A stretch of 64,000 nucleotides of DNA from an uncultured Ruminococcus sp. (lineage in GTDB: Bacteria; Bacillota; Clostridia; Oscillospirales; CAG-272), in NCBI GenBank assembly GCA_902778145.1, contig CACYWW010000003.1, positions 6,633 through 70,632 on the forward strand, in the 5' to 3' direction. A program made the translations under genes and the position numbers. Of this stretch, positions 34,181-50,937 are shown piece after piece. The notes beneath the pieces were generated by a model. The model made no database searches and was not told the DNA's origin. It saw only the letters and a program-made list of their open reading frames with translations. Position 1 is the first letter of the stretch. Each line of letters begins with the position of its first letter.

Positions 34181-34287
34181 CCGTACCCGCCGAGTGCAAT
34201 TTACATTTTGTTTACATCTAATTCTGTTACCTTTGAGTGCCCTGGACCGTTTTATATTATGAAGACGTAAAAAAGGAGGTCGGCGAT

Positions 34288-34827
34288 ATGCTTTTATTCA
34301 TACCGGATACGCTGCCTGACGACGATAAGCAGCTTATCTCGAAAATGTATGAAAAACACAGCAGAAGGATGTTTGCCGCGGCAAAACAGATCACAAACGA
34401 CAAAGGCGACGCCGAGGACGCCGTGCAGAATGCTTTCGTCTCGATCGTGAAGAACATCGGACGGATAAATATCGACGACGAGGAGGCAATGCGCGGATAT
34501 CTGCTTACCGTCGTTAAAAACGAGGCGGTAAACATTCTGCGCAAGCGCAAAGACAGCGAGCCGGTCGATGAAATGACCGGGATCGCCGACGGCTGCGACG
34601 TTGAATTTCTGACGGAAAAACGCGAGGTATTCGAGTACGCGGTAAAGATCATGTCGGCAATGGATGAGAAATACCGCGCGCCGCTTTATCTTAGTACCGT
34701 CATGGGATTTTCGATAAAAGAGGTTGCAAAGACACTCGGCAGAGATCATAAAACGGTAAAGGTACAGATAAGCAGGGCGAGAAAAATGCTCGCGGACGCG
34801 TTGACGGAGGCGGGATATGAGTTATAA
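34288..34827 (+). CDS. RNA polymerase sigma-70 family, ECF-type (group 4) sigma factor
   Basis: The start was moved to the ATG at 34288 (AAGGAGG SD 8 nt upstream). Region 2 is DAEDAVQNAFVSIVKN. Region 4 HTH is FSIKEVAKTLGRDHKTVKVQISRARKML. Confidence 0.85.
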   Translation: MLLFIPDTLPDDDKQLISKMYEKHSRRMFAAAKQITNDKGDAEDAVQNAFVSIVKNIGRINIDDEEAMRGYLLTVVKNEAVNILRKRKDSEPVDEMTGIADGCDVEFLTEKREVFEYAVKIMSAMDEKYRAPLYLSTVMGFSIKEVAKTLGRDHKTVKVQISRARKMLADALTEAGYEL

Positions 34828-37800
34828 ATATACGTTAAGAGACGTTTTGCTCGAAGAGAGCGAAAAAGAATTCTATTCGATCAAGCCTGACTTCGATTGG
34901 GAAAGATCGGAGAATCATAAAAAAGCAATAAACAAGTTATTTGAAGATAAGCCGTCCGTATTTGAAAAGATCGGATCGTCGCCTTTATACAAGGGACTTT
35001 CGATCGCCGCGGCTGTCGTGATAATCCTCGGCGCTCTGATCGCGATAAGGCCGGTGAGGGAGGCTGTGGCGTCGCTGTTCAAACGCACGCCCGACACCAC
35101 CGAGACCGGACCGCAGACGGAGCCCGGCGGTACGGATACGGTATCGGGCATTATCACGGAGCCGGCCGACACGACCGGGACGGATGTGACGGAGCCGGCC
35201 GATGAAAACGGCAAGCCGCCGGCGCATCTCTGCGTGACGTGCGGCGACGTTACGGTATATCCCGACGTATATCTGATGTGGACTGAGAAATATGACGACA
35301 AATCGGGGGGATGGTTGTCCGGCGACGGTTTCGGCACGGATGATCACATCCCGCTGCTGCACGGAAACAAGATCAGCATCGGGTATGAAGGATATGACGG
35401 CCGCGCGAGTGTAAGCGTACGTCTCGACGGCAATGACGAGCTCATATCGGCTTCCGTTGACGAGGTCAACACGTTCCTCGGTACCGCCGATAAAGGCGTA
35501 TACCGCTTCACCGTCTCGTATCTGTTGACCGGACGTCTGATAGACGGCAAATATGAAAAAACGTGTTTTCAGTACCTGTTCGACGTCGAGGTAAATAACG
35601 GGCAGGAAACGGTTTCGTTCGACGATAAAAGCGGTTCTTCTCCCGTCTATCTAAGCGTGAAAAGCGGTAATAACACGATCTATCCGGTGTCATATCCGGG
35701 CTTTTCGGAAATTTACGACGATGAAGAAAAAGTATGGCAGATGTGCGACCCGATCGGCATCGGAAACGCCGAAAACGTTCCGCTTATCAGATACACGGAC
35801 AGCGGCATTTTCATCGACTATGACGACAGATTTGACGGACCGCTCGACGTCAGCGGGATCAACGTTGTTTATTATATCAACGATGAAGAATACCGCATTA
35901 ACTACGACGATATAAACGCGTTCCTGAACAGCGCGGACGACGGGGTTTACCGTTTTGCCGTATCGTTTATAATCAACGGGCGTTATATCGACAATACGTA
36001 CGAAAGATCTGAGTGGATATACCCGTTTGACGTTGAAGTAAAAAAGGAAACGGAACCGGTGTTTGAAGACTGGGACAAACTCGATATACAGGGGCGCGTG
36101 GAGCGCGCGGTGTACGAGATAACGCATTACGGCATAAACTATCAGCGTTTCAGATACCTTTGCGGAGACGAGCATGAGGATCGCATTTACGACGACGGTG
36201 ACGGATATAATCTCACATATGAATCTCAGGATAATTTCACCTACGGTTATTTCCTTGATCTGTACGATACAGAGACCGATCCTATGCGCAAACAGCTTAT
36301 GTTCGTATATATTTCGTCTTTCCTCACCGGTACGTGGAACGACGAAGAGCACGCCGTACCGTACACTACGCATTATTACCCGCACTTTGACTATTTCAAA
36401 GCAGAATATCTGCCGCGCTTTGACGCGTCCTGGAATACAGAAGGTGACAAGTGGTTACACGAAAACTATTACGACGCACTCTGCAAATACGCGAGATATA
36501 TGACGGAGGACGAGGTAAAGACGAAATACGCGCCGTCATACAAGCTTTTGAAGAAATACGGCTTTAACGACTACGCCGATTCCGCAAAAACGTTTGAGCA
36601 GAAGGCGCAGCGCACGGTAAACGAATTTGTGAACATGGCTCTGTCCGTCAAATACGGCATAGCGGTAAGCGATCCGTCGTCAAACGTGTATTTCAGATTT
36701 GACGAAGGATCCGGCAGAGGAAGCGTATACGATATAGATGACGCCATATATACGGCTTTGCTGAAATACTATACGAAGGAAGAACTCAGCAGATTCGATT
36801 CCGCGCCTGCCGTATACGAGCAGCGTGAGGGAATAAAGAAGATTGACAAGTGGAAGGAATATTTCACTTCTCTTACGACAAAGAGCATAGCCGACGAGTT
36901 TGTAAAGGAAAGCAAATATTTCTTAACTACAAGCGACGGTCTGGTGCTGACGAGCGATCTGTACTATTTCTTCAACACGAACAATTTAAATGCACCGTAC
37001 TTAGGTCACATCGACTTTGAAACGAGCGGCGTTTGTATATACGACGTTGACGGGACCGGGTATTATACCGTACAGTTCAAAGAAGAAAACGGCAAAGTAA
37101 AGATTGTCGGCGGCACGCTCGTAACGGAATGGCTTTACAGAACATTATCACCGGATGAATGCGCAATAAAGGACGTTATAATGGACGCGGAAAAGCTGTT
37201 CCGCGTAATACGGTACGGCATAGTAAGCGATTTCAGATCCTACAGTCACGATATAACGTACAGCATCGAATACGGCAACAACAAAGACCTGCCCGACGGG
37301 CTTGAGGAAAAGCTCGATTTGATGTCAACGTACGAAACATCGGACGGAAAAAAGCATTATTTATCCAATCGGGTAATTCAGTTTTCATACGCGCTTTATA
37401 CGTACGATAACTGGATAAAATACTTTTCAAAAATACTGCCGGAAAAGCTCGTCCGGGAATATATAAAAGAAACTCCGTATTTTCTTATAGTCGGTGAAAG
37501 CGTTTACCTGCTTGACGGAGGGCTGCAGTCGTGGTATGAGATAGACTACGGTACGATGAAGTATCTGGGTGAAAAGGACGGTATAACGACGGTGGCGGCG
37601 GTACTTACCGGCGCTTACGGTCCCGAGATACCGCAGAACGGTTTTGAGGTGACTTTTGAGCTTGAAAAATCAGAAAATGGTTACAAGATTGTCGGCGGGA
37701 CGTTTATCGACGTATTCTTAGACAGCGGCGCGAACAAATCAAAGGCGGCGCACGCGGCATACGAGCTAATACGCGTATCCGATACCCTGCTCTGCGCGGA

Positions 37801-38284
37801 CACATCCGTTATATATATAACGGAATATATAAAAAATGACGAGGATGATCTGCCTGCGTCTTTCAAGGACGATAAAAGCAGACTGACCTTCCCTATATAC
37901 ACAGCGACTGATTTGCTTGATTTTGATCGTTATTCAAATATCCTGGACTTTTGGACGTCGGAGAAAATCAAAAACTCCGTTATGAAAGAAACGGACGTTA
38001 TGAAATGGGTGAAATTCGATCATGAATTATTCCCCGTTCTCATGCCGTCAAATTCGAAGTACACAATACGCCCAAAATTTGCCCAAACGAACGACATGAC
38101 GGTGTACGGGCTGATAAGCAATATGAAGAACTACAAGGAAACGGATGATACGATAGAGTTTTCACTTGATTTTATATTGAATTATAAAAACGGCACGCAA
38201 AAAAACGCAACTTATACGTTTTTATTTGACAAAACAGACTGCCGCATCATCGGCGGCACGTTCATCGAAGAACATATGAAATAA
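34817..38284 (+). CDS. Putative anti-sigma factor/sensor: short cytoplasmic N-domain, single TM, roughly 1070-aa repeat-built extracytoplasmic region
   Basis: 1155 aa. 11-nt overlap with the sigma gene and a GGAGGCGGG SD. TM at aa 60-78 (LSIAAAVVIILGALIAI), followed by a Thr/Pro/Glu linker. No zf-HC2 (HxxxCxxC) motif was seen. Confidence 0.6.
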   Translation: MSYKYTLRDVLLEESEKEFYSIKPDFDWERSENHKKAINKLFEDKPSVFEKIGSSPLYKGLSIAAAVVIILGALIAIRPVREAVASLFKRTPDTTETGPQTEPGGTDTVSGIITEPADTTGTDVTEPADENGKPPAHLCVTCGDVTVYPDVYLMWTEKYDDKSGGWLSGDGFGTDDHIPLLHGNKISIGYEGYDGRASVSVRLDGNDELISASVDEVNTFLGTADKGVYRFTVSYLLTGRLIDGKYEKTCFQYLFDVEVNNGQETVSFDDKSGSSPVYLSVKSGNNTIYPVSYPGFSEIYDDEEKVWQMCDPIGIGNAENVPLIRYTDSGIFIDYDDRFDGPLDVSGINVVYYINDEEYRINYDDINAFLNSADDGVYRFAVSFIINGRYIDNTYERSEWIYPFDVEVKKETEPVFEDWDKLDIQGRVERAVYEITHYGINYQRFRYLCGDEHEDRIYDDGDGYNLTYESQDNFTYGYFLDLYDTETDPMRKQLMFVYISSFLTGTWNDEEHAVPYTTHYYPHFDYFKAEYLPRFDASWNTEGDKWLHENYYDALCKYARYMTEDEVKTKYAPSYKLLKKYGFNDYADSAKTFEQKAQRTVNEFVNMALSVKYGIAVSDPSSNVYFRFDEGSGRGSVYDIDDAIYTALLKYYTKEELSRFDSAPAVYEQREGIKKIDKWKEYFTSLTTKSIADEFVKESKYFLTTSDGLVLTSDLYYFFNTNNLNAPYLGHIDFETSGVCIYDVDGTGYYTVQFKEENGKVKIVGGTLVTEWLYRTLSPDECAIKDVIMDAEKLFRVIRYGIVSDFRSYSHDITYSIEYGNNKDLPDGLEEKLDLMSTYETSDGKKHYLSNRVIQFSYALYTYDNWIKYFSKILPEKLVREYIKETPYFLIVGESVYLLDGGLQSWYEIDYGTMKYLGEKDGITTVAAVLTGAYGPEIPQNGFEVTFELEKSENGYKIVGGTFIDVFLDSGANKSKAAHAAYELIRVSDTLLCADTSVIYITEYIKNDEDDLPASFKDDKSRLTFPIYTATDLLDFDRYSNILDFWTSEKIKNSVMKETDVMKWVKFDHELFPVLMPSNSKYTIRPKFAQTNDMTVYGLISNMKNYKETDDTIEFSLDFILNYKNGTQKNATYTFLFDKTDCRIIGGTFIEEHMK
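35225..36043 (+). repeat. Tandem duplication of a roughly 125-aa module inside the anti-sigma-like gene (protein-level repeat A1/A2)
   Basis: A1 reads ...VTVYPDVY...VNTFLGTADKGVYRFTVSYLLTGRLIDGKYEKTCFQYLFDVEV. A2 reads ...NTIYPVSY...INAFLNSADDGVYRFAVSFIINGRYIDNTYERSEWIYPFDVEV. Confidence 0.8.
36590..38281 (+). repeat. Three divergent roughly 190-aa modules (B1-B3), each ending in K(I/V)(V/I)GGT(F/L)(I/V)
   Basis: The modules end at NGKVKIVGGTLVTEW (about 37130), NGYKIVGGTFIDVF (about 37715) and DCRIIGGTFIEEHM (38275). They share the E(F/Y)(V/I)KE(S/T)xYFL and WxxYF skeletons. Aligned by eye only. Confidence 0.55.
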
Positions 38285-38289
38285 ACAGG

Positions 38290-38330
38290 AACAACAAAAA
38301 CGCGCCGCAAGGCGCGTTTTTGTTGTTTTT
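38290..38330. terminator. Bidirectional rho-independent terminator
   Basis: aacaacaaaaaCGCGCCgcaaGGCGCGtttttgttgttttt lies between the convergent sigma/anti-sigma unit and the ABC operon. Confidence 0.88.
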
Positions 38331-38338
38331 ATGCGGTA

Positions 38339-39403
38339 TCAGTCCGCGGTCATACCGGAACGCTCGATACCCTGGATAAGGTATCTCTGGCAGAACAGGT
38401 ATATGATGACGAGCGGGAATATGATCATAAGTCCGCAGGTGTTCCTTATTGCCGCGTTGTACATAGTCGTACCGGCATACGTCATATTCAGTGACTCCGG
38501 TATGGCTATGACGTTCTTCATAAGCACTATCGACGTCCTTGTGAAGAACAGCGAGGTATAGAACGTATCAGTCCACTGCCATGAGAACGCGAACAGGAAG
38601 ATCGTTATCATCATAGGCACGGAGAGCGGCAGTATGATCTTCATAAAGGTCTTGAATATGCCGGAACCGTCTATATATGCGGATTCTTCAAGCTCGTTCG
38701 GAACGCCGCGGTAGAACTGGCGCATCATGAATATGTACAGACCGTTCTTGAACGCAAGTCCCGTTGCCGAGAGAAGTGCGAGAGGCCAGTATGTATTCGT
38801 GAGGTTGATGCTCGTTGCGCCGCCGGTAATATTAAGCTGGGGAAGGAGGCGTGAACCGCCGCCGAGCAGCTTCATTATGCCGAGCACGTCGAAATAACGG
38901 AACTTCATGAACAGGGACAGCTGCAGCGTCTGGTGCGGGATGATCATCGTGAAGATGACGAGCACGAACATGAGCTTGTTGCCCTTGAATTTGAACTTTG
39001 CAAGACCGTATCCGATCATTGCACAGACGAATGTCTGTATCAACGCGGCGGAGATGGACAGAAGAGCCGTATTTCCGACAGCCTGCATATACTTGTTCTC
39101 AAGGAATATGTATTTGTAGGTGTCGAACGTGAAGTTCTTCGGTATGAGCTTGACCGTCGCGTCAACAAAGTCCTCGGGACCCATGAACGACGAGGCGATT
39201 TTCGTGAAGAACGGGAACAGAATGATATAGGAGATACCGATCAGTATGACGTAGCGGAATATCGCCCAGATGACCTTCGTAAGAAAGTACTTGTTGAGGA
39301 ATTTCGCCTTCATTCTTTCCCAGAACGGTGTTCTGTCGAAATCCACCTTTATGGTGTTTTTCGTTTCTTTTCTTACTCTGGGTGTAGATTGTGTGTTATT
39401 CAT
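38339..39403 (-). CDS. Carbohydrate-type ABC transporter permease (MalG-like), pair 2
   Basis: The start was moved to the ATG at 39403 (AAGGAGG SD). EAA-loop motif ESAYIDGSGIFKTFMKIILP. About 6 TM segments. Confidence 0.85.
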   Translation of the reverse strand: MNNTQSTPRVRKETKNTIKVDFDRTPFWERMKAKFLNKYFLTKVIWAIFRYVILIGISYIILFPFFTKIASSFMGPEDFVDATVKLIPKNFTFDTYKYIFLENKYMQAVGNTALLSISAALIQTFVCAMIGYGLAKFKFKGNKLMFVLVIFTMIIPHQTLQLSLFMKFRYFDVLGIMKLLGGGSRLLPQLNITGGATSINLTNTYWPLALLSATGLAFKNGLYIFMMRQFYRGVPNELEESAYIDGSGIFKTFMKIILPLSVPMMITIFLFAFSWQWTDTFYTSLFFTRTSIVLMKNVIAIPESLNMTYAGTTMYNAAIRNTCGLMIIFPLVIIYLFCQRYLIQGIERSGMTAD

Positions 39404-39416
39404 GTGATCTGCCTCC

Positions 39417-40400
39417 TTAATCCCTTCTCTGATAGAAGACGAACGCGGACATGAACGCGGCGGCAAGCAAGACGAACACGATGACTATCGCAAAGTAGAT
39501 CCATGCCATAGCGACCGAGAGCGTGTCGTTGCCGGCTTCGCCGTACACCTGGTTGATGTACGACATGACCGAGTTGGTCGATGAGGTGAAAGCGTCGATT
39601 ATCGTGTAAATGAAGTTTACGAGGATCATCGGGCTTATCATCGGGAAGGTGATCTTCCAGAACGTCTCCCACGCGGATGCGCCTTCAACGTTGCAGGATT
39701 CGTAGATAGCCGGGGATATAGACTGCAGGCCCGCGAGGAATATCAGCATCTGTACGCCGGAACGGTTGACAATGTTGTAGATCTGGTTGACTATGTTCGT
39801 GACGTACTTTGCCAGTCCGCCGCCGATCTTCATACTTCCGAAGAGGTATTCTATATCCATGGCGGACACTATTTCAGCGACGCTTGTAGACTTTGCCGCG
39901 TTCGTACCTATACCGTCCGTATCGGACATATAAGTCATAAGACTGGTGTTGCTCAGGTCGATCTGAGCTATAAGACCGGTGGAAAGTATGACCGGTACGA
40001 AGAAGATCGCACGGAACGCCGCGCGTCCGACCATCTTCTGGTTAAGCAGAACGGCGATGAACAGCGAGAATATCAGGATCGCCGGGACGTCGAGCAGGAG
40101 CTGACGGAGACCCGCGGTGAGTATCTGGCTGTAGTTCGGGTCCGAGAACAGCGCCTTCTGGTAGTTGGAGATACCCGCCCAGACGAGCTGGTATGACTCG
40201 CCGGCGTTGATCCTTTCGATCGTCGTCACACTGTAGAGGAACGATTCGAATATGACCGGCAGATATATCACTATGAAGCCGATTATAAACGGAAGGGTGA
40301 ACAGGTAACCGCCGCGCGCCTGCTTCTTTTCAAGCGAATGTGACTTTCTGCGCTTTTTGGTGTTGCTCGTGACGAGCTTTACTTCAGCTTCTTTATTCAT
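39417..40400 (-). CDS. Carbohydrate-type ABC transporter permease (MalF/LplB-like), pair 2
   Basis: 327 aa, polytopic. Motif ESCNVEGASAWETFWKITFP. The start overlaps the upstream stop (TAATG). Confidence 0.82.
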   Translation of the reverse strand: MNKEAEVKLVTSNTKKRRKSHSLEKKQARGGYLFTLPFIIGFIVIYLPVIFESFLYSVTTIERINAGESYQLVWAGISNYQKALFSDPNYSQILTAGLRQLLLDVPAILIFSLFIAVLLNQKMVGRAAFRAIFFVPVILSTGLIAQIDLSNTSLMTYMSDTDGIGTNAAKSTSVAEIVSAMDIEYLFGSMKIGGGLAKYVTNIVNQIYNIVNRSGVQMLIFLAGLQSISPAIYESCNVEGASAWETFWKITFPMISPMILVNFIYTIIDAFTSSTNSVMSYINQVYGEAGNDTLSVAMAWIYFAIVIVFVLLAAAFMSAFVFYQRRD

Positions 40401-43400
40401 TATTCAGCTACCTCCTGCGCAAAATATGATACGAAATTGAGAGCGGGGATGACGCCGTCGTATCCGTCGACCGTAACGTCGTAGTTGTTATAGTTGAGGA
40501 TGAACGTCTTTCCGCCTTCGTAAGTCACGCGGACGATCTTGCCGTTTGCGACAACGTCTTCGGGATTGACCTTCGTTCCGGGATCTTCGCTCTGCTCGCC
40601 TTCGCCTTCCTCAGGCTCGCTCTCTTCCGCGCTGTCGGGTTCAGCTTCGGTCTCGGGTTCGGTCTCCTCCGTCACGGCCGCTTCCGTCACTTCCGTCGGC
40701 TCCGCGGTCTCGCCTTCGATCTCGGCGTCGGTCGTTTCGCCTTCGACTTCCGTTGTTACGGCATCCGCTGTCTTGGCGTCTTCAAGCGCCTTGGACGCGC
40801 TTTCCTCGTCAAGTCTTCTCTGCTCGTCCTCTTCACGTTCTCTGATCTCCTCAGCCGTGAGGACGCGTACGCCGTTCAGGAATTCGTGATTTACGATTAT
40901 CTTGTCCTGAACATCCTTGAGCGCTTCGTTCAGGATCTTGTATTTTTCAACAAGACCGGACTCTGCCCAGATCTTGAAGTTGACTGAATACATCTTCTTG
41001 TATTCGGTGTCTTTCTTGAGTATATCGGTGTTCTCATACGCGAGCATGAAGTACGGGACCGCGCCGTTCTCCACGGCCTTGAGTATCTCGTAATCAATAT
41101 CGCCCGCCATGTTGAGAGCCTCGCCCGAGAACTGAACGTATCCGTGGAGCACCATGCCCATGAAGGGTATCGCTTCACTCGTTCTGAGGTACTGGCTGGA
41201 ATCGAGCGGCGTTGCAAGTATGTAGTCGGCATACTGTACCGAATACATGTTGCCGCCGTTTATCATCACGTTGCCGAAGTCCTCACTGATCTGAGCGAGC
41301 AGATCCTTGATCAGGCTCTTTGAATCTTCTCTGTTGTACGGATCCTTCTTATCGAAGTCGGAGTTCAGATCCGATCCGAGCGTTCCGACGGATATGCCGG
41401 ACGGAGCGTATTTCAGAAGCTTGGGAGCGAAGTGCTCGTAGAAGTAGCTGAATACGGACGTGGATATGAGGTTGGGACCCCATCTTCTCGTCATCTGATA
41501 AGCGGGATCGTAATAGTAGGATCTCGGATAACGGTTATCCATCGTCTTCGCCGCGTGCTTCTTATAGGAGAAGCCGTCGAACATCGACGTGTTGTTGAGG
41601 TACGTGAATTCGAATTCGGGGAAGATCTCTATATCCTTCTCCTTGGCGAATTCCATCAGGTTTTTGAAGCCCTTGGCTCCGCCGACCTTCTTTTCCCATT
41701 TGAGATTGTAAGGTACGGTGGCGTACATACCGCCGTTTGCGTAGCCTGTGAGCTTGAACTTGATGTTCGTTATACCTTTTTCGGAAAGCGTTCCGTACAT
41801 CTCCTTGACGTCATCAAAGGATGTGAGCGGCTTCTTAACCGTTACAGGTACGCTGAGGATCTGGTCTTCGGTCTCTATCGTACCGAGCGTCTCAAGTACC
41901 AGCGGTATATCCGACTTGACGTCGCTTGATGTGAGCCTGTTGAGTACGCCGTTCGATTCAAGGTAATCACGGCAGGCGTTGACCATGCCCATGTAGCTTG
42001 CGGAATAGAATTTGGACTTTTCATCCTTTTCTCCGCTCTCCTCAAGTCCGGCGTAATACTCCGCGACCTTTTCGTCATCGGAAAGCATGAAGTATTTGAC
42101 TGTGTAGTTTCCGGTGTACTTTCTCTTTGCCGAGACTGTCCACATCGCGTCGTCAGCCGCCGCGCCCATAGCCTCACGCAGGCTGTAGGAGTCGGTAGGT
42201 CTGGGGAAGAATTTTGTCTGCACCGTGCTGTAAACGTGCGTCGCACCGGCACCGTTCACGGTGGAGATCTGCGCAAGCGCGTCGCCTTCGGTCAGGATAG
42301 CGAAGTAACCTCTGTTATCCGTGACTTCAGTCGCCTGCATGACCGTCTTTTCCTTGATCAGGAAGCCGAACTGGTCATAAAACCATTCTGATTCGGGAAG
42401 CGGGACCTTGACGGCTTTGACCGTCCTGCTGCTGAAGTTTTCAACAACGCCGTAGACCGGGAATCTCATCATCTGGCGGTGCGCCGGATCCGTGGTGTAG
42501 TATGCGTAGTCGGGTCCGTAGACGTTCGACGTGATGTTCAGAGGTCTGCTGACGTCCTCAAATCTCGTGAGCGTGCCGCTGCCGTCGGGTATCAGGGTGA
42601 AGCCCTTGCGTGTACCGTTGCCGCAGCCGAACCACGGGTTGACCTGCAGATAGTCGAGCGTGTATACGTTCTCGTCGAAGCTTATGCTCTTCGCAGACAG
42701 AGTCTGGTTGAGTCCCGTATCGGTGAGCGTGTACTCTATCGCCATTCTGAACAGAGGCTGAGAAGCCGCCGCCACCTCGAATTCGGTTATATCATGGTCG
42801 TAGTCAAGCTCTTCATAGCTGTAATCCGGGGCGTACATCTTAATGTAACCCTCGAGCATGTTGAACTCACGGTCCTTCGTATCGGTACCGAGGACCCAGA
42901 TGGACGAATACTTCTTCAGTATCGGCCACTGAGCGAGTATCGAATCGCGTCCGCTCTTGCTCAGCGTCGGGTCGTTGATGTTCTTCTCGGAATAGAAGCC
43001 GTTTGCAAACTTGTTGAGAATGAAGTCCCTGTCACGCTCCGAGAGATCCTTTGTGTTCTCACGGATCGGATCGAGGATCATTTCCTGGAAACGCTCGTCG
43101 GTGATCATCTGAGGAACGAGCCATCTCGTCTGAGTCTTGCCGAGTGTGTATTCGACACGGACGCCGTTCTTGATGTTCTTGACGATTATCTGTTCACGCT
43201 TCGCCGCTTCTGTATAGCTGTTGTAAACAGTCGTCTTCGAACCGGTGGTGAACTGAAGGACTATCTGCGACATCAGCTCCGCTTTTGTATCCGCGGAACC
43301 CTTGGTCGACGCTATGTCGTAGGGATTGCTGAACAGGATCTGACCCGTTCTCTTGTCTCTTATGGCGACCTCGCCGTATGTCGCTCTGACGTAAAGCTCG

Positions 43401-43624
43401 TAATTATCGTTTTCGGTACGGAGCTTCATGTCCTTGAGCTTATCCTCGGGCGTCTTGTAGACGACCTTGAGGATGTCTATGCTTTTGTCTTCCGGCTCAT
43501 CCTCTGTTTCGCTTGAGGCTTCGTCGGTCTTCGCCGCTTCGACTCTCATGCGGGGAGTGAGTATCGCCGTGAACACACTTGCCGCCATCAGGACAGCAAG
43601 CAAGGCTGAGAGTATTTTTTTCAT
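40400..43624 (-). CDS. Large secreted protein of unknown function (possibly DUF5696-like, unverified) with an acidic linker and a small C-terminal domain
   Basis: The start was moved to the ATG at 43624 (MKKILSALLAVLMAASVF..., GGGAGGA SD). Signal peptide present. A roughly 90-aa Glu/Thr/Asp-rich tract is encoded at about 40560-40850. Confidence 0.7.
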   Translation of the reverse strand: MKKILSALLAVLMAASVFTAILTPRMRVEAAKTDEASSETEDEPEDKSIDILKVVYKTPEDKLKDMKLRTENDNYELYVRATYGEVAIRDKRTGQILFSNPYDIASTKGSADTKAELMSQIVLQFTTGSKTTVYNSYTEAAKREQIIVKNIKNGVRVEYTLGKTQTRWLVPQMITDERFQEMILDPIRENTKDLSERDRDFILNKFANGFYSEKNINDPTLSKSGRDSILAQWPILKKYSSIWVLGTDTKDREFNMLEGYIKMYAPDYSYEELDYDHDITEFEVAAASQPLFRMAIEYTLTDTGLNQTLSAKSISFDENVYTLDYLQVNPWFGCGNGTRKGFTLIPDGSGTLTRFEDVSRPLNITSNVYGPDYAYYTTDPAHRQMMRFPVYGVVENFSSRTVKAVKVPLPESEWFYDQFGFLIKEKTVMQATEVTDNRGYFAILTEGDALAQISTVNGAGATHVYSTVQTKFFPRPTDSYSLREAMGAAADDAMWTVSAKRKYTGNYTVKYFMLSDDEKVAEYYAGLEESGEKDEKSKFYSASYMGMVNACRDYLESNGVLNRLTSSDVKSDIPLVLETLGTIETEDQILSVPVTVKKPLTSFDDVKEMYGTLSEKGITNIKFKLTGYANGGMYATVPYNLKWEKKVGGAKGFKNLMEFAKEKDIEIFPEFEFTYLNNTSMFDGFSYKKHAAKTMDNRYPRSYYYDPAYQMTRRWGPNLISTSVFSYFYEHFAPKLLKYAPSGISVGTLGSDLNSDFDKKDPYNREDSKSLIKDLLAQISEDFGNVMINGGNMYSVQYADYILATPLDSSQYLRTSEAIPFMGMVLHGYVQFSGEALNMAGDIDYEILKAVENGAVPYFMLAYENTDILKKDTEYKKMYSVNFKIWAESGLVEKYKILNEALKDVQDKIIVNHEFLNGVRVLTAEEIREREEDEQRRLDEESASKALEDAKTADAVTTEVEGETTDAEIEGETAEPTEVTEAAVTEETEPETEAEPDSAEESEPEEGEGEQSEDPGTKVNPEDVVANGKIVRVTYEGGKTFILNYNNYDVTVDGYDGVIPALNFVSYFAQEVAE

Positions 43625-43647
43625 ATTCTGTTTTCCTCCCATCCTTT

Positions 43648-45786
43648 CTAAATTCTGTATGAGATCTCGGTGACTATGTTAGCCACGAAACCTACGATCT
43701 TCTGTATAAGGTTGGTGAACAGGAGCGCCACGAACATTATGAACGCCATACCGATTATGGTGCCGAGCGTGGTGAAGATGTTCTTCATGAACGAATAGTC
43801 GTGAGTTACCTGTGATCCGAAGAACACGAGCATACCGACCCAGACCCACATGACGCCGGTGATCAGTCCGAGGACCTTGCCTTCGGAAAGGCTGAGCACG
43901 TGCGAGAGGATCGTCGCCGGGATGATGCACAGCGGGATCGGAACGAGGGAATAGCAGGTCGCTATGAAGATGTCCTTCAGGCTTCCTTCGCCCTCGAACA
44001 GCGTGGTCAGACACCAGTTCGCTATGACCCAGAGTCCTACCGGTACGACGATCGAGATGATCTGTCCGAATACGCTCTGATATCCTCTGCTCGGGTTGAA
44101 CAGATACGCGGTGCCGATTCCGTTATAGGTGAACGACGCTATCGCTATCGCGAGCCACGTGAGACCGCCTCTGATCGAACCTCTCTTCTCATGCTTGAGG
44201 TCCCAGAAACCGTCGAACGGGTGCATCATAAGGTGGAAGGCAAAGATGACTTCCTCGCCGTAGGATCTGCGTCCGCCGGGTCTCGTAGCGACTTCCTTGT
44301 TCCTCTTTCCGACGAATCTGAAGAAGAAGTACAGACCGACTATGACGACTACCACCACGAGCGGAACGATGAGCGCGTATTTGGCGACCCAGTTCTTTCT
44401 CTGCTGCTTGAAGGCGGTGGAGTAGTTTTCCGTCTCATAAGCCGCCTCGTACATTTCCATGGCGGATTTGTAATCGCCTTCTCTGTAGTACGCCTTGCCT
44501 ATACCGACGTACGCTTCGTCGAAGTTGTTGTTCCTCATGAGGATGCCGCGCCAGTTTTCGGCGGCTTCGTCATAGTTGAGGTTCTTCTGGTTTTCAAGAG
44601 CGCTTATAAGGATGTTGCCGTATTCCGTTCTCTTGAACACCGTTATGTTGTCAGCCGTGTTATCGAGCACGAGCAGGTCGTTGCCCATATATACGACGGC
44701 GTTGACCGTTTCCATGTTGCCGAGCTGGGAGCCCTGGTCACCGAAGATGAACAGAAGGCTTCCGTTTTCATCATAGGTGAATATCTTGGATCTCGTCTTG
44801 TCTATGATGCTCCACGTTCCCTGCGGACCGAGAGCAACGTCGACGATCTTGGACGGACCGTAGATGCTCGTGCTCGTGGATGCGGAGTTGCTTATCCTGA
44901 CCTCACCGGACGGCGGATAGAAGCCGTTGCGCTTCAGTATCTCGTTGCCCTGCGTGTTCAGCATTTTGACCGGAGCGTATTCACCGCTCTTCGATTTGCC
45001 CGTGATCGCCGCCTGCTGAGCGCCTTCATCAAGGTTGATATTCGTGACATAGATCATGCCGTTCTTATCGATCGTGATGTTTTCGTACTCGGACGCGACG
45101 TTCTGCTGCTGCTGGTCGAGCTGTTCCTTTGTCTGGAACCTGCGCCAGAATATCTGCCACGCGGAAAGCGGGGATTTCTGAGCGCCTATGAAGCCCTGGA
45201 AGACGCCGTCGCCGTCCATGGCGATGATGCCCTGATACGTTGAAGCGGAAACGACGTACATTCTTCCGGATCTGTCGACCGCGACCGCCTTGGGACGGTA
45301 GAGGTCGTCGACCGCGAATTCGTCCGCTATCGGCTTTTCGACGATCCTGACAAACTTAGCGTCACGGTCGAACACGACGATCCTGTTGTTGTCCGTATCG
45401 CAGACGTAGATGTTGTTCTCCGTTACGAATACGCCCTGCGGGTTGTTGAACGTGTCCGGGACTCCTTGGGAGTTCGTGAACTTTTCGATGTAGAAGCGGA
45501 GCTTGTAGCGCTTGTTGAGGACCACGATCCTGTTGTTGCCGGCGTCGGCAATGTAGACGTTCTGTTTGTCGTCCACGAACAGGTCTGTCGGGTTCTCGAG
45601 CGCCGGGGTGATGCCCATGGTCGCGCTTGTGACTATCTCATCCGGAACGTACGCGTCCGGAGACTCCATGTAGTTGCCGTTTATATCGTACGTGTACGTC
45701 TGATATGAATAGTATGCCGAGGCAAGCGGCGTTACCGCTAATATCAGCACGAACATGACCGCGGCGGCTCTTATAATATTTTTCAT
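43648..45786 (-). CDS. Signal peptide plus six NHL-repeat propeller plus TPR plus C-terminal Yip1-domain membrane protein
   Basis: 712 aa. NHL signatures (VYIADAGNNRIVVLN, IYVCDTDNNRIVVFD, MYVVSAS...). TPR segment (GIGKAYYREGDYKSAMEMYEAAYE). A TM segment and then a Yip1-like 5-TM block (HPFDGFWDLK...). GAGGAGG SD. Confidence 0.75.
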   Translation of the reverse strand: MKNIIRAAAVMFVLILAVTPLASAYYSYQTYTYDINGNYMESPDAYVPDEIVTSATMGITPALENPTDLFVDDKQNVYIADAGNNRIVVLNKRYKLRFYIEKFTNSQGVPDTFNNPQGVFVTENNIYVCDTDNNRIVVFDRDAKFVRIVEKPIADEFAVDDLYRPKAVAVDRSGRMYVVSASTYQGIIAMDGDGVFQGFIGAQKSPLSAWQIFWRRFQTKEQLDQQQQNVASEYENITIDKNGMIYVTNINLDEGAQQAAITGKSKSGEYAPVKMLNTQGNEILKRNGFYPPSGEVRISNSASTSTSIYGPSKIVDVALGPQGTWSIIDKTRSKIFTYDENGSLLFIFGDQGSQLGNMETVNAVVYMGNDLLVLDNTADNITVFKRTEYGNILISALENQKNLNYDEAAENWRGILMRNNNFDEAYVGIGKAYYREGDYKSAMEMYEAAYETENYSTAFKQQRKNWVAKYALIVPLVVVVVIVGLYFFFRFVGKRNKEVATRPGGRRSYGEEVIFAFHLMMHPFDGFWDLKHEKRGSIRGGLTWLAIAIASFTYNGIGTAYLFNPSRGYQSVFGQIISIVVPVGLWVIANWCLTTLFEGEGSLKDIFIATCYSLVPIPLCIIPATILSHVLSLSEGKVLGLITGVMWVWVGMLVFFGSQVTHDYSFMKNIFTTLGTIIGMAFIMFVALLFTNLIQKIVGFVANIVTEISYRI

Positions 45787-45801
45787 TTATTATATACCTC
45801 C

Positions 45802-46677
45802 TCAGTCTTTCATACCGGACGACGCCATCGTCTCGATTATGTTGCTCTGCGATATGATGAATACCGTGACAGGTACGATCATCATGATGACCATCGCGGC
45901 GGTACTTGCGCCCGCGCGGACGATACCGGCGGAAAGTATCTGCTGTATGGCGTAGTTGAACGTTTTGAGCTGCTCGGACTGGATGTAGATCGAGGAACCG
46001 GTGTTCCACAGACCCTGGAACGAGTAGACTATCAGAGTCAGCCACGCGGGCTTGACCATCGGCATTGCGATGGACCAGAAGACTCTGAACTCACCCGCGC
46101 CGTCAAGACGCGCGGATTCGAGCGCCTCGTTCGAGACCGAGGAGTCCATGAACTGCTTCATCAGGTACAGACCCAGGGTCGAGCAGCACGCCGGCAGGAT
46201 TATCGCCAGCAGGTTGTCAACGAGTCCGAGGAACGAGAACGTGATGAAGTTTGCGATACCGGTGACCGTGGAAACGAACATAAGGGACAGAACTATCATC
46301 TGGAATATGCCTTTTCTTCCGGGGAACGGTATCTTCGAAAGCGCGTATGCCGCAAGCGAACCGAGACACAGGTTGCCGAACGTTCCGGCTACGGTGATAA
46401 GCACCGTGTTGAATATGTATCTCGAGAACGGGACCCACGACGTACTCATGAGTTTGAACAGGTCTGCGTAGTTCTTAAGCGTCGGGTTGATGACGTAGAA
46501 CTTAGGCGGGAAGATCCAGAGCTCGTCAAGCGGCTTCAGTGAAGTCATGACCGAGAAGTACATCGGTATGAACATCAGAACACCGAGTATGACAAGCATT
46601 ACAGTGATACCCGCGTCGCCTCCGGCAGAACGGTTAAGGACGACTTTATGGTTTCTTACACGCATTTTTCTTGCCAT
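45802..46677 (-). CDS. Carbohydrate-type ABC transporter permease (MalG-like), pair 1
   Basis: 291 aa. EAA loop ESARLDGAGEFRVFWSIAMP. 1-nt gap to the upstream gene. Confidence 0.88.
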   Translation of the reverse strand: MARKMRVRNHKVVLNRSAGGDAGITVMLVILGVLMFIPMYFSVMTSLKPLDELWIFPPKFYVINPTLKNYADLFKLMSTSWVPFSRYIFNTVLITVAGTFGNLCLGSLAAYALSKIPFPGRKGIFQMIVLSLMFVSTVTGIANFITFSFLGLVDNLLAIILPACCSTLGLYLMKQFMDSSVSNEALESARLDGAGEFRVFWSIAMPMVKPAWLTLIVYSFQGLWNTGSSIYIQSEQLKTFNYAIQQILSAGIVRAGASTAAMVIMMIVPVTVFIISQSNIIETMASSGMKD

Positions 46678-46678
46678 A

Positions 46679-47638
46679 TCACTGTCCCACCTTTGATAAG
46701 AGTTTCTTGATCAGCATGTTGGATCCTATCATCATCAGGAACAGGATCGTAGCGATCGCTGATGAATAACCGACCTCGAATCGCTGTCCGCCGTAGTCCT
46801 CCAGGTGATGCATGATAGTCCATGCGCAGTAGTCGACCGAGGGGAAACCGGCGAGCGCCGTGACTATGCCGCCGAAGCCGAACGAACCGGTGATGCTCAT
46901 GACGGCACCGAACATCAGCTGTTCCTTCATTGAAGGCAGCGTGATGTACCACAGCTCCTGCCAACGGTTTCTGACGCCGTCGAGCGCGCCCGCTTCGTAC
47001 AGGCTGTTATCGACGATCTGAAGACCGGCGATGAAGGAAAGGAACGTTGTACCGAGCGACGTCCACAGAGCGACTATTATACACAGCGGCATAACGTATT
47101 TCGCGTTCTGGAAGAACTGTATCGGCTCGGTTATGAAGTTGTACTCGATCAGAAGCGCGTTGACGTAACCGTAACGGTCCGACGAGAAGAATATACCGAA
47201 TATCTGGTACATCGAGCCTGCGATGGACGGAGCGTAGAATATAAGAGTTACGAACGCTCTCATCTTCGGAGGAAGCTCGTTTATGAACCATGCGACGAAC
47301 AGCGAGAGCAGGTACGAGACAGGTCCCGTAATGACAGCGAATATCAGCGTGTTCTGTATGGCGGTAAGGAATATATCGTCGTCAAGGAACAGTCTGACGT
47401 AGTTGTCAAGTCCCACGAATTTCGGCCATTCGAGCAGGTTGAAGGATGTGAAGCTCAGTATCATCGAAAGGAAGACCGGCACCACGGTGAAGACGAAGAA
47501 CAGAATGAAGAACGGAGCTATCATTATATAGCCTGCCTTGTTCTTTTTCATTTCCTTCCACGTCCACTGCGCCCGCGTCATATCCTTACGTGCCACCGGC
47601 TTGGCTTTTCTTTCTTTTACTGCCGTATTCTGTGACAT
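46679..47638 (-). CDS. Carbohydrate-type ABC transporter permease (MalF/LplB-like), pair 1
   Basis: 319 aa. Motif YEAGALDGVRNRWQELWYITLP. AGGAGA SD. Confidence 0.88.
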   Translation of the reverse strand: MSQNTAVKERKAKPVARKDMTRAQWTWKEMKKNKAGYIMIAPFFILFFVFTVVPVFLSMILSFTSFNLLEWPKFVGLDNYVRLFLDDDIFLTAIQNTLIFAVITGPVSYLLSLFVAWFINELPPKMRAFVTLIFYAPSIAGSMYQIFGIFFSSDRYGYVNALLIEYNFITEPIQFFQNAKYVMPLCIIVALWTSLGTTFLSFIAGLQIVDNSLYEAGALDGVRNRWQELWYITLPSMKEQLMFGAVMSITGSFGFGGIVTALAGFPSVDYCAWTIMHHLEDYGGQRFEVGYSSAIATILFLMMIGSNMLIKKLLSKVGQ

Positions 47639-47697
47639 GTTAGATTATCTCCTGTTTAAGATTTTGCCGTAATACTATATGAATCTATATTATATTA

Positions 47698-50600
47698 TCA
47701 ATCGAACCACTCGGGATGAGCTTCCTCATTCTGAGCTTTATAGTCTTCATACGTTATCAGACCGAATTCTTTACGCTTACGCGACAGCTCATTGTTGATG
47801 TACTGTATCTGGTCAAGCAGTGAGTTCGTCGAATCGGCGTTGTTGTTGTAGCAGTTCAGGAACGCGAAGTCTACGTAACGGGTTATGATGTAACCGCCCG
47901 GGAATTCCGGCGTGCCCTTGAGGTGCTCGAACTGAGCTTCAAGGTTCTTTCTCTCGGAGTTCGTCCAGGACATGTTGCGGAGAGCCTCGGTGTTGGCAGT
48001 GTTGAATTTCGCCGCCATACCGACTATCGCTTCATACTGCTTCGCATACGTGGACTGAGCCTCGGCTCCCGTCCACCATTTCATGAATTCCCAGCAATTC
48101 TTACGGAGCTCATCGGATCTGCCCTTCTTGTCTCTCATAAGGACAGTCGCCGCAACAGAGCAGGGCGCGTTGCTGTTTATCTTGACGGTACCGTCGTCAT
48201 TGTACAGGGTCTTGCCGTTTTCATCGGTCTCGATCGTTCCGGGAAGCAGGGTGAATTCCCAGAGTCCGCGGAGCTCTGTCGCGTAGATCGTGAACTGGTT
48301 GTAGGTCAGGTAGTCAGCAACCGCGATCGGCATCTCGCCCATTCTGAAGTATGTTGCGAGGTCGTATGCGCGCGGGAACTTGAACACCTGGAACAGCGTT
48401 ACCAGCTCTTCGAAGCACTGCAGCGAGACTTTTGAGTCAATGTTTATCCGCATGCCGTCCATCACGCCGTCGCCGTTGATATCGGAATACAGGTCTTCAC
48501 CGCGCTGATACATCAGCATCTGAAGACCGCCGAGGCTCGACGGGAACCCGACCATACGGTAATTTATCTGAAGGGTGGGAACTATATCATAGAGATCACG
48601 CCACGTCTGCGGAACTTCGAGATCGAGCTCCGCGAATATGTCTTTGCGATAGAACAGCATCGAGAAACCGAGTCTTTCGGGGATGCCGTAATAAATGTAG
48701 TTTGTCGGGCTCTCCGGGTCTTCGAGCCTGAGTCCTACGAGCGCCTGATCACTGAAGCGCTGATCGCATATATCGAGATAGTCGGAATAAAGGTTATCGG
48801 CGCCGTCTGCGGTCTTGTACAGCGGTTCGACCGCGCTTCTTATCGCGTAGTTGATAACATCCGACTGACCCATAGCAAGTGAGATATCGGGACCGTCGCC
48901 CGCAAGCGTCGCGGGAAGCAGCGTGCCGCCGGCAACGAGCTTCAGGTTGACCTTTACGGGGCAGGTAAGGTCGATCATCTCACGCATGACCTGAGCCTCC
49001 TCACGGCTCGTGGAGATCCAGACCTCAACAGCCTCGGCGTCGTTGTTGTCCTCGACGGAGCCGAGTGAGTTGTAGTCCGTGAAGAAGCTTGCGAAGAACG
49101 CCTTGACCTCAAAGGCGAACGAACGCCAGAAGCCCGCCGTTCCTCTCGGATAAGCCTTCGTGCTCTTCGCCGCGGGCTGGAGAGTGATGTAGTCGACGTT
49201 CAGCGCCTGGAGCTTCGTGTTCATGATCCAGGTGCCGAGATAACCGGTGTTGACCTTGAGGTTCGCCAGGTTCTTCGCGATCTCGGATTCCTTGCTGCTC
49301 ATCTTGCCGAGCAGGTACGCTATCTTTTCAAGCGTCGCTATATCCGACGCGGATTTACCGCCGAGTATCTTCTTGAACTGATCCGCCACTTCCTGGATCT
49401 TGTTCTGCGTCGATCTCATGAGGATGATCGTATCGTAGATCGTCGCGGCGAAGTCGTACGACGTATATTCGTCGGGGTTCGGACCGGTGATCCTGATGAT
49501 GGACTGATATATGGAGTTCATATCGTTGATGCAGTCCTGGATCTGACGGAGCGTGCCGGACATATTGCCGTAACCGACCTCCATCTTTATCGAAACGTCC
49601 TTGCCCGCCTCAAAATAGAATTTGAGATCCTGCGTGCCGTCGTTCAGAGGCGTGCACTGCCAGTCGTCGGAATAGTTGAACTGTAACCTGGTGCAGTTTT
49701 CGAACGGGATCTTTCCGTTGATATAAAGCACACGGGAAACGTACAGACCTTCACGTATGGACTGCTTGAATCTCGGGACGATGTAATAATAACCGCTTTC
49801 GGTTATCTCGCTGCCCGGGATCGTCCATTCGATCCACTGACCGAACGTCTGCCATTTGCTGTCGCCAATGGTGTTCAGCAGCTGCTTGGAAGCGTGCTGC
49901 GGTTCCGTGATCGCCGACGTTCTGTCGTTTATGGCGTAGATCGTGAGGTCGGATTCGGAGGTGGGCGTCTCGGCCTGGACCTTCGGCGCGTTCGCGTTCG
50001 CGGAAGCGTCCTGCGAGCCGTTCGCCTGCAGGTATTCCTCGTAAGTGGGGAGCCCCGCGTACGGCTCAACGTAGATCTCCGAGATGATGATGTCGTTCAT
50101 CGTCGCGTTGAAGGAGATCGTGTGCTTGCCGGCGCTCAGCGCGTATTTGAGAGGCTGAAGCTCGAAGCCCTGCGAATCCATCAGATAAGATTCCGACCAC
50201 TCATAGACCTGTATCTTCTGCGGTTTCTTTTCGTTTCCGTTCTTGTCGGGTGTGAAGCCCTGCGTACCGTCGTCACGCTTCATATCCGCGTTATAATCGT
50301 CTACGAATTTTCTCGTAAATTCGTAATAATACGACTCACTGAACGGAGCCTTACCGTCAACGAAGAACTCACGTTTTATATTCGATGTGTTGATGTTCTT
50401 CGTTTCATACGGCTTGTAGACGATGCGTACGACGTAATACCCGGTCTCGGGAACGTCTATCTCCCACGTCGTCAAGCCGGCTTCGGGCATATGAAGGACG
50501 GCTCCCTTTTCGGGATCCTGCAAGACTTCGACCGTCATGTCGGCGTAATCGGCGTCGGGCTCAAACACATAGCCTTCAGCCGCCGTGACCTTGACGCCCG

Positions 50601-50811
50601 AGCCGGACGCATCCTTCCAGCCCTGCAAATCCTTCTCGTTCTTGTAGGTAAAGTAATTCTCGCTGTAAAGATATTCCTTTACCTGATCCATGGTCGTCTT
50701 TTCGGTCTTCTTCACCTCAGTGCCGGTGTCAGACGCGCAGACGCCCGTAGGGATCAGCATCAGTACCGCTAGAAGGACCGCGAGTACCTTTGCCGTTTTG
50801 GGTGATCTCAT
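47698..50811 (-). CDS. Giant extracellular solute-binding protein: signal peptide plus two CBM-like beta-sandwich modules plus helical spacer plus C-terminal family-1 SBP fold
   Basis: The start is probably the second ATG at 50811, because the AGGAGG SD lies only 2 nt from the first ATG at 50817. The C-terminal roughly 450 aa has SBP hallmarks (VEVWISTS..., GPDISLAMG, FMKWWTGAEAQ). The N-terminal half carries duplicated GYY(V/I)V...(V/I)(D/N)GK(A/I)PF modules. Confidence 0.75.
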   Translation of the reverse strand: MRSPKTAKVLAVLLAVLMLIPTGVCASDTGTEVKKTEKTTMDQVKEYLYSENYFTYKNEKDLQGWKDASGSGVKVTAAEGYVFEPDADYADMTVEVLQDPEKGAVLHMPEAGLTTWEIDVPETGYYVVRIVYKPYETKNINTSNIKREFFVDGKAPFSESYYYEFTRKFVDDYNADMKRDDGTQGFTPDKNGNEKKPQKIQVYEWSESYLMDSQGFELQPLKYALSAGKHTISFNATMNDIIISEIYVEPYAGLPTYEEYLQANGSQDASANANAPKVQAETPTSESDLTIYAINDRTSAITEPQHASKQLLNTIGDSKWQTFGQWIEWTIPGSEITESGYYYIVPRFKQSIREGLYVSRVLYINGKIPFENCTRLQFNYSDDWQCTPLNDGTQDLKFYFEAGKDVSIKMEVGYGNMSGTLRQIQDCINDMNSIYQSIIRITGPNPDEYTSYDFAATIYDTIILMRSTQNKIQEVADQFKKILGGKSASDIATLEKIAYLLGKMSSKESEIAKNLANLKVNTGYLGTWIMNTKLQALNVDYITLQPAAKSTKAYPRGTAGFWRSFAFEVKAFFASFFTDYNSLGSVEDNNDAEAVEVWISTSREEAQVMREMIDLTCPVKVNLKLVAGGTLLPATLAGDGPDISLAMGQSDVINYAIRSAVEPLYKTADGADNLYSDYLDICDQRFSDQALVGLRLEDPESPTNYIYYGIPERLGFSMLFYRKDIFAELDLEVPQTWRDLYDIVPTLQINYRMVGFPSSLGGLQMLMYQRGEDLYSDINGDGVMDGMRINIDSKVSLQCFEELVTLFQVFKFPRAYDLATYFRMGEMPIAVADYLTYNQFTIYATELRGLWEFTLLPGTIETDENGKTLYNDDGTVKINSNAPCSVAATVLMRDKKGRSDELRKNCWEFMKWWTGAEAQSTYAKQYEAIVGMAAKFNTANTEALRNMSWTNSERKNLEAQFEHLKGTPEFPGGYIITRYVDFAFLNCYNNNADSTNSLLDQIQYINNELSRKRKEFGLITYEDYKAQNEEAHPEWFD

Positions 50812-50908
50812 TAGCATTTCCTCCTGATGAATATCCGAAGTGCCGTCATTATGACGGTATCCGTTAACACGCGGCGCAACGAGAAATCGCGCGTGTAATT
50901 TTATATAT

Positions 50909-50937
50909 AATATAACACAAGATTTTTATGTTGTCAA
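50909..50937 (-). promoter_or_regulatory. Sigma-A type promoter (TTGACA-N17-TATATT) of the seven-gene ABC operon
   Basis: The reverse complement reads ctcTTGACAacataaaaatcttgtgtTATATTat. It leaves a roughly 85-nt leader containing two hairpins (ACACGCG/CGCGTGT and CCGTCA/TGACGG). Confidence 0.6.

Follow-up and report, generated by a model that had tools for sequence, protein, structure and literature searches.

Standard accounts of how Gram-positive bacteria of the gut and rumen take up complex glycans involve one solute-binding protein (SBP), a single pair of permeases and an ATPase that is shared with other importers. The locus considered here raises the question of what is encoded by a conserved operon that adds three obligatory parts to this picture, i.e. 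a further permease pair, a membrane protein of the NHL-Yip1 type and a large protein of the DUF5696 family. The operon is present in a 64-kb stretch of DNA from an uncultured Ruminococcus sp. (contig CACYWW010000003.1, positions 6,633 to 70,632; hereafter the window), to which all statements on ATPase genes, Rfam matches and neighbouring genes in the host genome refer, and it comprises seven consecutive open reading frames (ORFs) on the minus strand (38339-50817). An original prediction, made from the sequence alone, proposed that it encodes a cell-surface machine for the capture, processing and import of a complex polymer. Support for this proposal comes from the carbohydrate-binding module (CBM)-type domains and the MalE-like half of the SBP, from the GH129/GH101/GH36-like fold predicted for the DUF5696 protein, and from the glycanase genes neighbouring the module in other lineages. 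It is thus probable that the operon encodes one multi-component machine for glycan capture, processing and import, working on the outside of the cytoplasmic membrane.

Composition and conservation of the module

In operon order, the genes encode a giant SBP, a first permease pair (P1a and P1b), an NHL-TPR-Yip1 protein, the DUF5696 protein and a second permease pair (P2a and P2b). The sizes, order and junctions of the seven genes were all found as originally predicted, as were the domains, with Pfam giving SBP_bac_8, four BPD_transp_1, NHL, TPR, Yip1 and DUF5696. The junctions are, in the same order, 59, 1, 15, 23, -1 and 13 nucleotides (nt), the -1 reflecting a TAATG overlap of the P2a start with the DUF5696 stop, and a GGAGG-type ribosome-binding site precedes each of the seven genes.

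The overall conservation of this arrangement is striking. A scan using one genome per species gave at least 477 loci with a DUF5696 relative, the best 80 of which were fetched; these are rumen/gut Clostridia metagenome assemblies, with one record labelled Methanocorpusculum. In all 80 the seven genes are in identical order, to the contig limits. In the 57 complete loci no junction exceeds 25 nt, with two kinds of exception: the SBP and P1a genes are separated by a median of 59 nt, and in three cases the NHL-TPR-Yip1 and DUF5696 genes lie up to 45 nt apart. The permeases are far better conserved than the extracellular proteins, mean identities to the window proteins being ~74% for the P1 pair and 61-67% for the P2 pair, but 49% for the DUF5696 protein and 47% for the SBP. 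A prevalent human-gut species carries the same locus. Two of the 80 loci contain genes that look broken, i.e. an NHL-Yip1 gene in two ORFs (L028, 7862-9996) and a shortened P1a gene (L027, 5988-6734); as both loci are metagenome assemblies, faulty assembly may be responsible, rather than true pseudogenes being present.

When plasmid records were searched at the protein level, the module was located in the cultured Butyrivibrio fibrisolvens D1 and Paenibacillus cellulosilyticus KACC 14175, in both of which all seven proteins are one-to-one orthologues of their window counterparts, with identities of 23% for the DUF5696 protein and 43-58% for P1a. The same gene order is found in other Paenibacillus, Cohnella nanjingensis, a Roseburia metagenome-assembled genome (MAG), Acetatifactor and metagenome contigs, and the hosts of the module include Firmicutes of soil as well as of the gut and rumen. 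Its recurrence in all 80 metagenomic loci goes beyond chance. One-to-one orthology in Clostridia and Bacilli implies that the seven genes were together before those classes separated.

The two permease pairs and their probable ATPase partner

P1a (46679-47638, 319 residues) and P1b (45802-46677, 291 residues) form the first pair and are UgpA/MalF-like and UgpE/MalG-like, respectively, their best NCBIfam matches being UgpA and UgpE. The second pair comprises P2a (39417-40400, 327 residues), which is UgpA/MalF-like, and P2b (38339-39403, 354 residues from the ATG), which is UgpE/MalG/GlcU-like. All four are BPD_transp_1 proteins in Pfam. Each permease has the EAA loop in all 58 of its orthologues (P1a EAGALDG, P1b ESARLDG, P2a ESCNVEG, P2b ESAYIDG), and the loop is also kept in the permeases of the cultured relatives, such that both pairs should dock an ATPase dimer. 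Pfam/NCBIfam assignments and EAA loops thus agree with the predicted presence of two full permease pairs, each pair being a heterodimeric type-I channel of the CUT1 sugar family. The pairs are old paralogues (27% identity for P1a versus P2a and 23% for P1b versus P2b), and both P2a and P2b have an enlarged loop, with ~100 additional residues.

Compared with type-I importers of the CUT1 type, the module has MalF/UgpA- and MalG/UgpE-like permeases with EAA loops twice over, together with a MalE-type (SBP_bac_1/8) binding protein, a single one being encoded for two pairs. Two other features of such importers are absent, i.e. a MalK/MsmX-type ATPase gene inside the 64-kb window and the lipoprotein-anchored SBP that is usual in monoderms. 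With respect to the former, CUT1-type importers of Firmicutes typically lack their own ATPase gene, and orphan ATPases are shared among importers, as with MsmX of Bacillus subtilis and MsmK of streptococci, so the predicted lack of an ATPase gene in the operon is usual for the family. The related loci are similar in this regard; no ATP-binding cassette (ABC) ATPase gene is present beside the cluster in 78 of the 80, with unrelated ORFs in the other two. An ABC gene upstream of the human-gut locus was considered as a partner and ruled out, because its domain pattern is that of ABC-F proteins and not of a transporter subunit. The module of P. cellulosilyticus is immediately preceded, on the same strand, by an ATPase gene of the ugpC/msmX type. 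It would thus appear that the module uses an ATPase of the MalK/MsmX type.

The giant solute-binding protein

The SBP gene (47698-50811, within an ORF of 47698-50817) encodes 1037 residues from the ATG at 50811, of which only residues 633-928 are recognised by Pfam, as SBP_bac_8. The AlphaFold2 model (mean predicted local distance difference test score, pLDDT, 84) has a signal peptide followed by two β-sandwiches (residues ~70-252 and 279-415), a four-helix bundle (residues 419-535) and a MalE-like domain (residues 540-1039). Foldseek matches the predicted MalE-like domain to oligosaccharide SBPs, with target-normalised template-modelling scores (TM-scores) of 0.7-0.8, including binders of cycloisomaltooligosaccharides, cycloalternan, sophoro-oligosaccharides and maltose, as well as MalE in the transporter complex. 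In the N-terminal half, Pfam families are recognised among 27 orthologues, i.e. Golvesin_C in 11, CBM_35 in five, GH115_C in four and CBM_6 in one; the window SBP itself has no CBM family match in Pfam.

The SBP signal peptide ends in an Ala-x-Ala-type site. Lipoprotein anchoring was considered for both the SBP and the DUF5696 protein and was ruled out, since the lipobox cysteine is not conserved (in the case of the SBP, among 27 orthologues). In the lineages that have extra, ordinary SBPs, these carry LTAC lipoboxes, which the giant SBP never does.

The NHL-TPR-Yip1 protein

The fourth gene (43648-45786) encodes a 712-residue protein that is a candidate membrane scaffold. Pfam recognises an NHL domain (E 4e-11, 42.8 bits versus a cut-off of 20), TPR and, at residues 518-687, Yip1 (PF04893; E 1.9e-12, 47.9 bits versus a cut-off of 28.6), and in the PDB the NHL part has sequence matches to Thin, NHLRC2, PknD and TRIM71 (E 1e-18 to 1e-13). 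Hydropathy and charge fit an arrangement in which a signal peptide is followed by an extracellular propeller and TPR region, a transmembrane helix, a basic cytoplasmic loop and the multi-pass Yip1 domain.

P. cellulosilyticus shares with the window lineage a single fused gene for the protein. In most of the other lineages, covering Butyrivibrio, Paenibacillus, Cohnella and other Lachnospiraceae, the NHL part (with a C-terminal transmembrane helix) and the Yip1 part are encoded by two genes overlapping by 10-20 nt (L084, 6813-8908; L086, 7915-9985; L087, L088, L089, L090, L091, L092 and L094). Fusion in some lineages and overlap in others imply that the two parts are functionally tied. There is precedent for a Yip1-family protein working with an ABC transporter in the form of YknW, which modulates the assembly of the YknXYZ transporter of Bacillus (PMC4887032).

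The DUF5696 protein

The DUF5696 gene (40400-43624, within an ORF of 40400-43642) encodes 1074 residues from an ATG at 43624, as in its orthologues, and its product, which is secreted or signal-anchored, is assigned to DUF5696 by Pfam with an E value of 1e-136. The family is large, with 5558 representatives at 50% identity; many members have 1300-2500 residues, with large additions past the barrel (e.g. P0402, P0413, P0418 and P0457).

The AlphaFold2 model of the window protein (pLDDT 73) comprises an N-terminal β-sandwich, a (β/α)8 barrel, a disordered, acidic insert and, at the C terminus, a conserved β segment. The possibility that the latter is a flexible docking tether was ruled out, because it follows the barrel without a linker in other clades. 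The best Foldseek match of the model is to the GH129 structure 5opq (E 2e-22, target-normalised TM-score ~0.65), followed by the GH129 enzyme NagBb (5wzn and 5wzp, E ~1e-18), the TM-scores of the GH129 matches being 0.62-0.67; GH101 (E ~1e-10), GH36 and GH31 structures come next. The predicted fold is thus of the retaining α-glycosidase type (GH129/GH101/GH36), a likeness that is found at the level of fold and not of sequence similarity.

Eight residues are invariant throughout the family, i.e. D353, D378, D762, R771, N798, Y800, N844 and E858 (numbering of the 1080-residue ORF from 43642; subtract 6 for the 1074-residue protein), with H833 being near-invariant (at least 90%). These residues, in and before the barrel, persist across clades at ~25% identity. 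In GH129 and GH101 enzymes the catalytic nucleophile is an Asp after strand 4 and the acid/base follows strand 6. D762 is located after the fourth predicted barrel strand, as judged from the model. There is no invariant acid after strand 6, E858 being the only other invariant acidic residue of the barrel.

Genomic context in other lineages

Outside the window clade the module adjoins genes for regulators and for various glycoside hydrolases. In Paenibacillus and Cohnella these encode LacI, a lipoprotein SBP and GH26 and/or GH113 mannanases, and in the Roseburia MAG, LacI and GH53 galactanases. GH43 is encoded beside the module in the Lachnospiraceae locus L091, Butyrivibrio and Acetatifactor, accompanied by GH35, GH42 and LacI at L091 and by a histidine kinase in Butyrivibrio and Acetatifactor, whereas the metagenome contig L094 has AraC, GH16 and GH3. 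The polymers attacked by the partner enzymes are β-linked mannan, galactan and glucan. One or two extra lipoprotein SBPs also adjoin the module in these lineages. The joining of the module to different endo-glycanases suggests that it is a general transport platform.

These associations bear on the original claim that the operon lacks a regulator, which holds for the window but not for the module in general; the presence of LacI, AraC or a histidine kinase elsewhere indicates that the absence of a regulator is a trait of the lineage. In the window clade, the module is flanked by housekeeping genes that differ among relatives (iscS/nifU, alaS, ROK and vanY); given this variability, the flanking genes were not used as a hint to function.

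Expression signals

A sigma-70-type promoter-like site is present upstream of the SBP gene at 50909-50937 on the minus strand (TTGACA, 17 nt, TG-extended TATATT), with 11 of 12 consensus positions, and a terminator-like hairpin with a 17-bp stem is present at 38290-38327 on the same strand, in common with a convergent gene for a 1155-residue product; motif matches were thus located for both the predicted sigma-A promoter and the predicted terminator. In an alignment with six relatives, both promoter hexamers (-35 and -10) and the TG are unchanged, while the surrounding sequence varies. The two sites are the top motif matches of the region. The region-wide count of promoter and terminator motifs is no higher than in shuffled sequence, so the matches alone are weak proof. 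From gene spacing and motifs together, it can be inferred that the seven genes likely form a single transcription unit.

The 5' leader (50812-50905, minus strand) contains a hairpin (50868-50895) with a 9-nt loop, TTTCTCGTT, at 50878-50886. The loop is invariant in seven sequences, while the stem varies with compensating substitutions. The fold energy of the leader is ordinary (z = -0.76), and Rfam gave no match to a known RNA or riboswitch, either in the leader or in the whole window; the hairpin may be a regulatory or mRNA-stabilising element. Inspection of the leader by eye for a cre site gave a best candidate with three mismatches, and such a site is not claimed.

A second promoter-like match (47674-47701, minus strand; TTGATA, 16 nt, TATAGT; 10 of 12 positions) spans the end of the SBP gene and part of the 59-nt gap before P1a. 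This gap is the only long and variable junction among the relatives (17-448 nt). It may be that the SBP can in this way be expressed at a level different from that of the membrane components.

Proposed mechanism and alternatives

The domain content, conservation and genomic associations described above are observed, whereas the interactions, enzymatic activity and substrate in the following mechanism are inferred. Polymers or long oligosaccharides would be kept on the cell surface by the CBM-like modules of the SBP, the MalE-like domain of which would pass oligosaccharides to the first permease pair. The DUF5696 protein would act at the membrane, either as a glycosidase or by handling glycans in partnership with the second pair of permeases. 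The NHL-TPR-Yip1 protein may position the DUF5696 protein and organise the assembly, by analogy with YknW, and may also retain the giant SBP, which has no lipid anchor. Both channels would be driven by a shared ATPase of the MsmX/UgpC type encoded elsewhere in the genome. In the window lineage, the module apparently stands alone under a strong, conserved promoter.

A broader proposal is that the module represents an unrecognised class of ABC importer, ancient in Bacillota, in which a DUF5696 protein of glycosidase fold, on an NHL-Yip1 scaffold, serves a type-I ABC translocator as its dedicated partner outside the cell, with cleavage or recognition of the glycan coupled directly to passage through the second channel, and a CBM-bearing giant SBP that is not lipidated feeds the first channel, so forming a Gram-positive counterpart of Sus-like systems. 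In this full form the proposal is speculative and would appear doubtful.

Several observations weigh against the assignment of the operon as a capture, processing and import machine. Neither the Walker A motif with an ABC signature nor, hence, a candidate ATPase was found in any ORF of the 64-kb window, and the promoter and terminator are consensus motif matches only. Regarding the DUF5696 protein, phmmer gave no usable match in the PDB, the only profile match was a marginal one (E 0.29), of NagBb to the beginning of the barrel, and Pfam searches at E up to 10 with the barrel and with four distant members returned DUF5696 only and no GH family. The D762 motif, which is the most conserved of the protein, is in a loop of low model confidence. 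Further, the predicted fold is α-glycosidase-like whereas the partner enzymes have β-linked targets, so a role in processing is not obvious.

The manner in which the components might be divided is addressed by rate covariation. Among the 57 complete loci, with common signal removed, the NHL-TPR-Yip1, DUF5696, P2a and P2b proteins covary mutually at 0.5-0.7, and a second group comprises the SBP together with P1a and P1b. This grouping is also seen in the distant clade alone. The pairwise distances used are non-independent, a shared rate class can inflate the values, which likewise counts against the proposed mechanism, and among the 13 closest loci no clear pattern is seen; the presence of two sub-modules is thus suggestive only.

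The covariation of the DUF5696 protein, which is strongest with P2a, P2b and the Yip1 protein, is also what would be anticipated were it non-catalytic and instead the receptor of the second translocator, replacing an SBP, docking on the enlarged P2 loops and gating transport, with NHL-Yip1 as its tether. Consistent with this alternative, the DUF5696 gene takes the place of an SBP gene before the second pair, its stop overlapping or nearly abutting the P2a start, the operon of the window lineage has no second SBP, and P2a and P2b have the extra loops of ~100 residues. Further, the invariant residues are kept across clades with different glycans, which a common partner or ligand explains as well as catalysis does. 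However, no type-I ABC importer is known to have a receptor lacking the SBP fold; the extra lipoprotein SBPs of other lineages could serve the second pair, and an active glycosidase would be expected to have such invariant Asp/Glu residues in its (β/α)8 barrel. On balance, a receptor role of this type is considered unlikely.

It may alternatively be that the operon encodes two independent, ordinary sugar importers, a free glycosidase and an unrelated membrane protein, which are co-transcribed for regulation and form no joint assembly. Both permease pairs are complete and canonical, and clusters of transporter and hydrolase genes are common in Gram-positive glycan utilisation loci. By contrast, the identity, order and spacing of the genes are kept from rumen Clostridia to Paenibacillus (23-58% identity) while the surroundings change, and clustering for convenience would not normally last so long. 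Moreover, NHL and Yip1 are fused or overlapping solely in the context of the module, and an unanchored giant SBP alone would be lost from a monoderm cell, making this explanation improbable. Very improbable, at least for the window lineage, is an envelope housekeeping role in salvaging pieces of glycopolymers from the wall or capsule of the cell itself, since, although the operon here and in the closest relatives has no regulator or partner hydrolase, has a strong, conserved promoter, and is in housekeeping surroundings (dcw, pheST, amidase and dacB in the window; iscS/nifU, alaS and vanY in relatives), all other sampled lineages have the module in regulated loci with enzymes for plant/algal glycans, and the housekeeping neighbours vary among relatives and so carry no functional signal.

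Defining the role of the module would give a function to the large DUF5696 family, could reveal how monoderms hold and import large oligosaccharides, and would sharpen substrate prediction for many uncultured Clostridia. The module is present in cultured organisms, i.e. B. fibrisolvens D1, P. cellulosilyticus KACC 14175, P. alkalitolerans, P. catalpae and C. nanjingensis, in which the neighbouring enzymes allow a guess at the likely substrate.

Neighbouring genes in the window

The operon is flanked by a divergent GNAT gene on one side and, on the other, by a convergent ECF-sigma gene and the ORF of 1155 residues. The ECF sigma gene (34237-34827, plus strand) overlaps the start of the latter (34817-38284, plus strand), which has no Pfam match, shares the hairpin of the operon (38290-38327) as its end and may encode a surface protein or an anti-sigma factor. 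Further out, the window consists of core chromosomal genes, including the dcw cluster, uvrC, lon, lysA, scpA, dacB, pheST and an amidase gene. Apart from the operon, the sole recognisable glycoside hydrolase found in the window is encoded by an ORF at 19573-21114 (plus strand), which has a GH123 catalytic domain (E 1e-32), the family being one of β-N-acetylgalactosaminidases.

Comparison with known systems

The original prediction that no system of this composition has been characterised is in agreement with our searches, in which no characterised homologue or naming paper was found; in the full-text literature, including work on carbohydrate utilisation by Paenibacillus, no mention of DUF5696, PF18952 or the gene combination was found. 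None of the closest known systems has, as a fixed partner, a DUF5696 or NHL-Yip1 protein or an additional translocator.

The importer components most resemble the MsmX/MsmK-dependent CUT1 importers, such as the GanSPQ galactan system, with which they share MalF/UgpA- and MalG/UgpE-like permeases with EAA loops, a MalE-type domain and an operon without an ATPase gene, as well as, in other lineages, association with LacI-type regulators and endo-glycanases, e.g. GH53. By contrast with these importers, two permease pairs are present here in one conserved unit, the SBP, of ~1000 residues, contains a helical bundle besides its CBM-like modules and lacks lipoprotein anchoring, and the NHL-Yip1 and DUF5696 proteins are obligatory core members.

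The predicted fold of the DUF5696 protein is similar to those of GH129 enzymes, including the α-N-acetylgalactosaminidase NagBb and the 3,6-anhydro-D-galactosidase ZgGH129, and of the GH101 endo-α-N-acetylgalactosaminidases (E 2e-22 to 1e-9). It differs in lacking sequence-level membership of these families and in being encoded always between the Yip1 gene and a permease pair; further, the glycanases associated with it in other lineages act on β-linked polymers.

With respect to the membrane protein, YknWXYZ is similar in that a Yip1-family protein is encoded with an ABC transporter, for which it is needed as an accessory. However, YknYZ is a MacB-type exporter, whereas the module encodes a type-I importer, and YknW has neither an NHL nor a TPR ectodomain.

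In terms of overall logic, the module is comparable with the Sus-like systems of Bacteroidota, in which the functions of binding glycans at the surface, acting on them there with an enzyme and transporting them by a dedicated system are co-encoded and reused for many glycans. The parts are, however, unrelated, with a TonB-dependent transporter and SusD lipoproteins in the outer membrane in the one case and ABC translocators in a monoderm membrane in the other, so the resemblance is one of working principle only.

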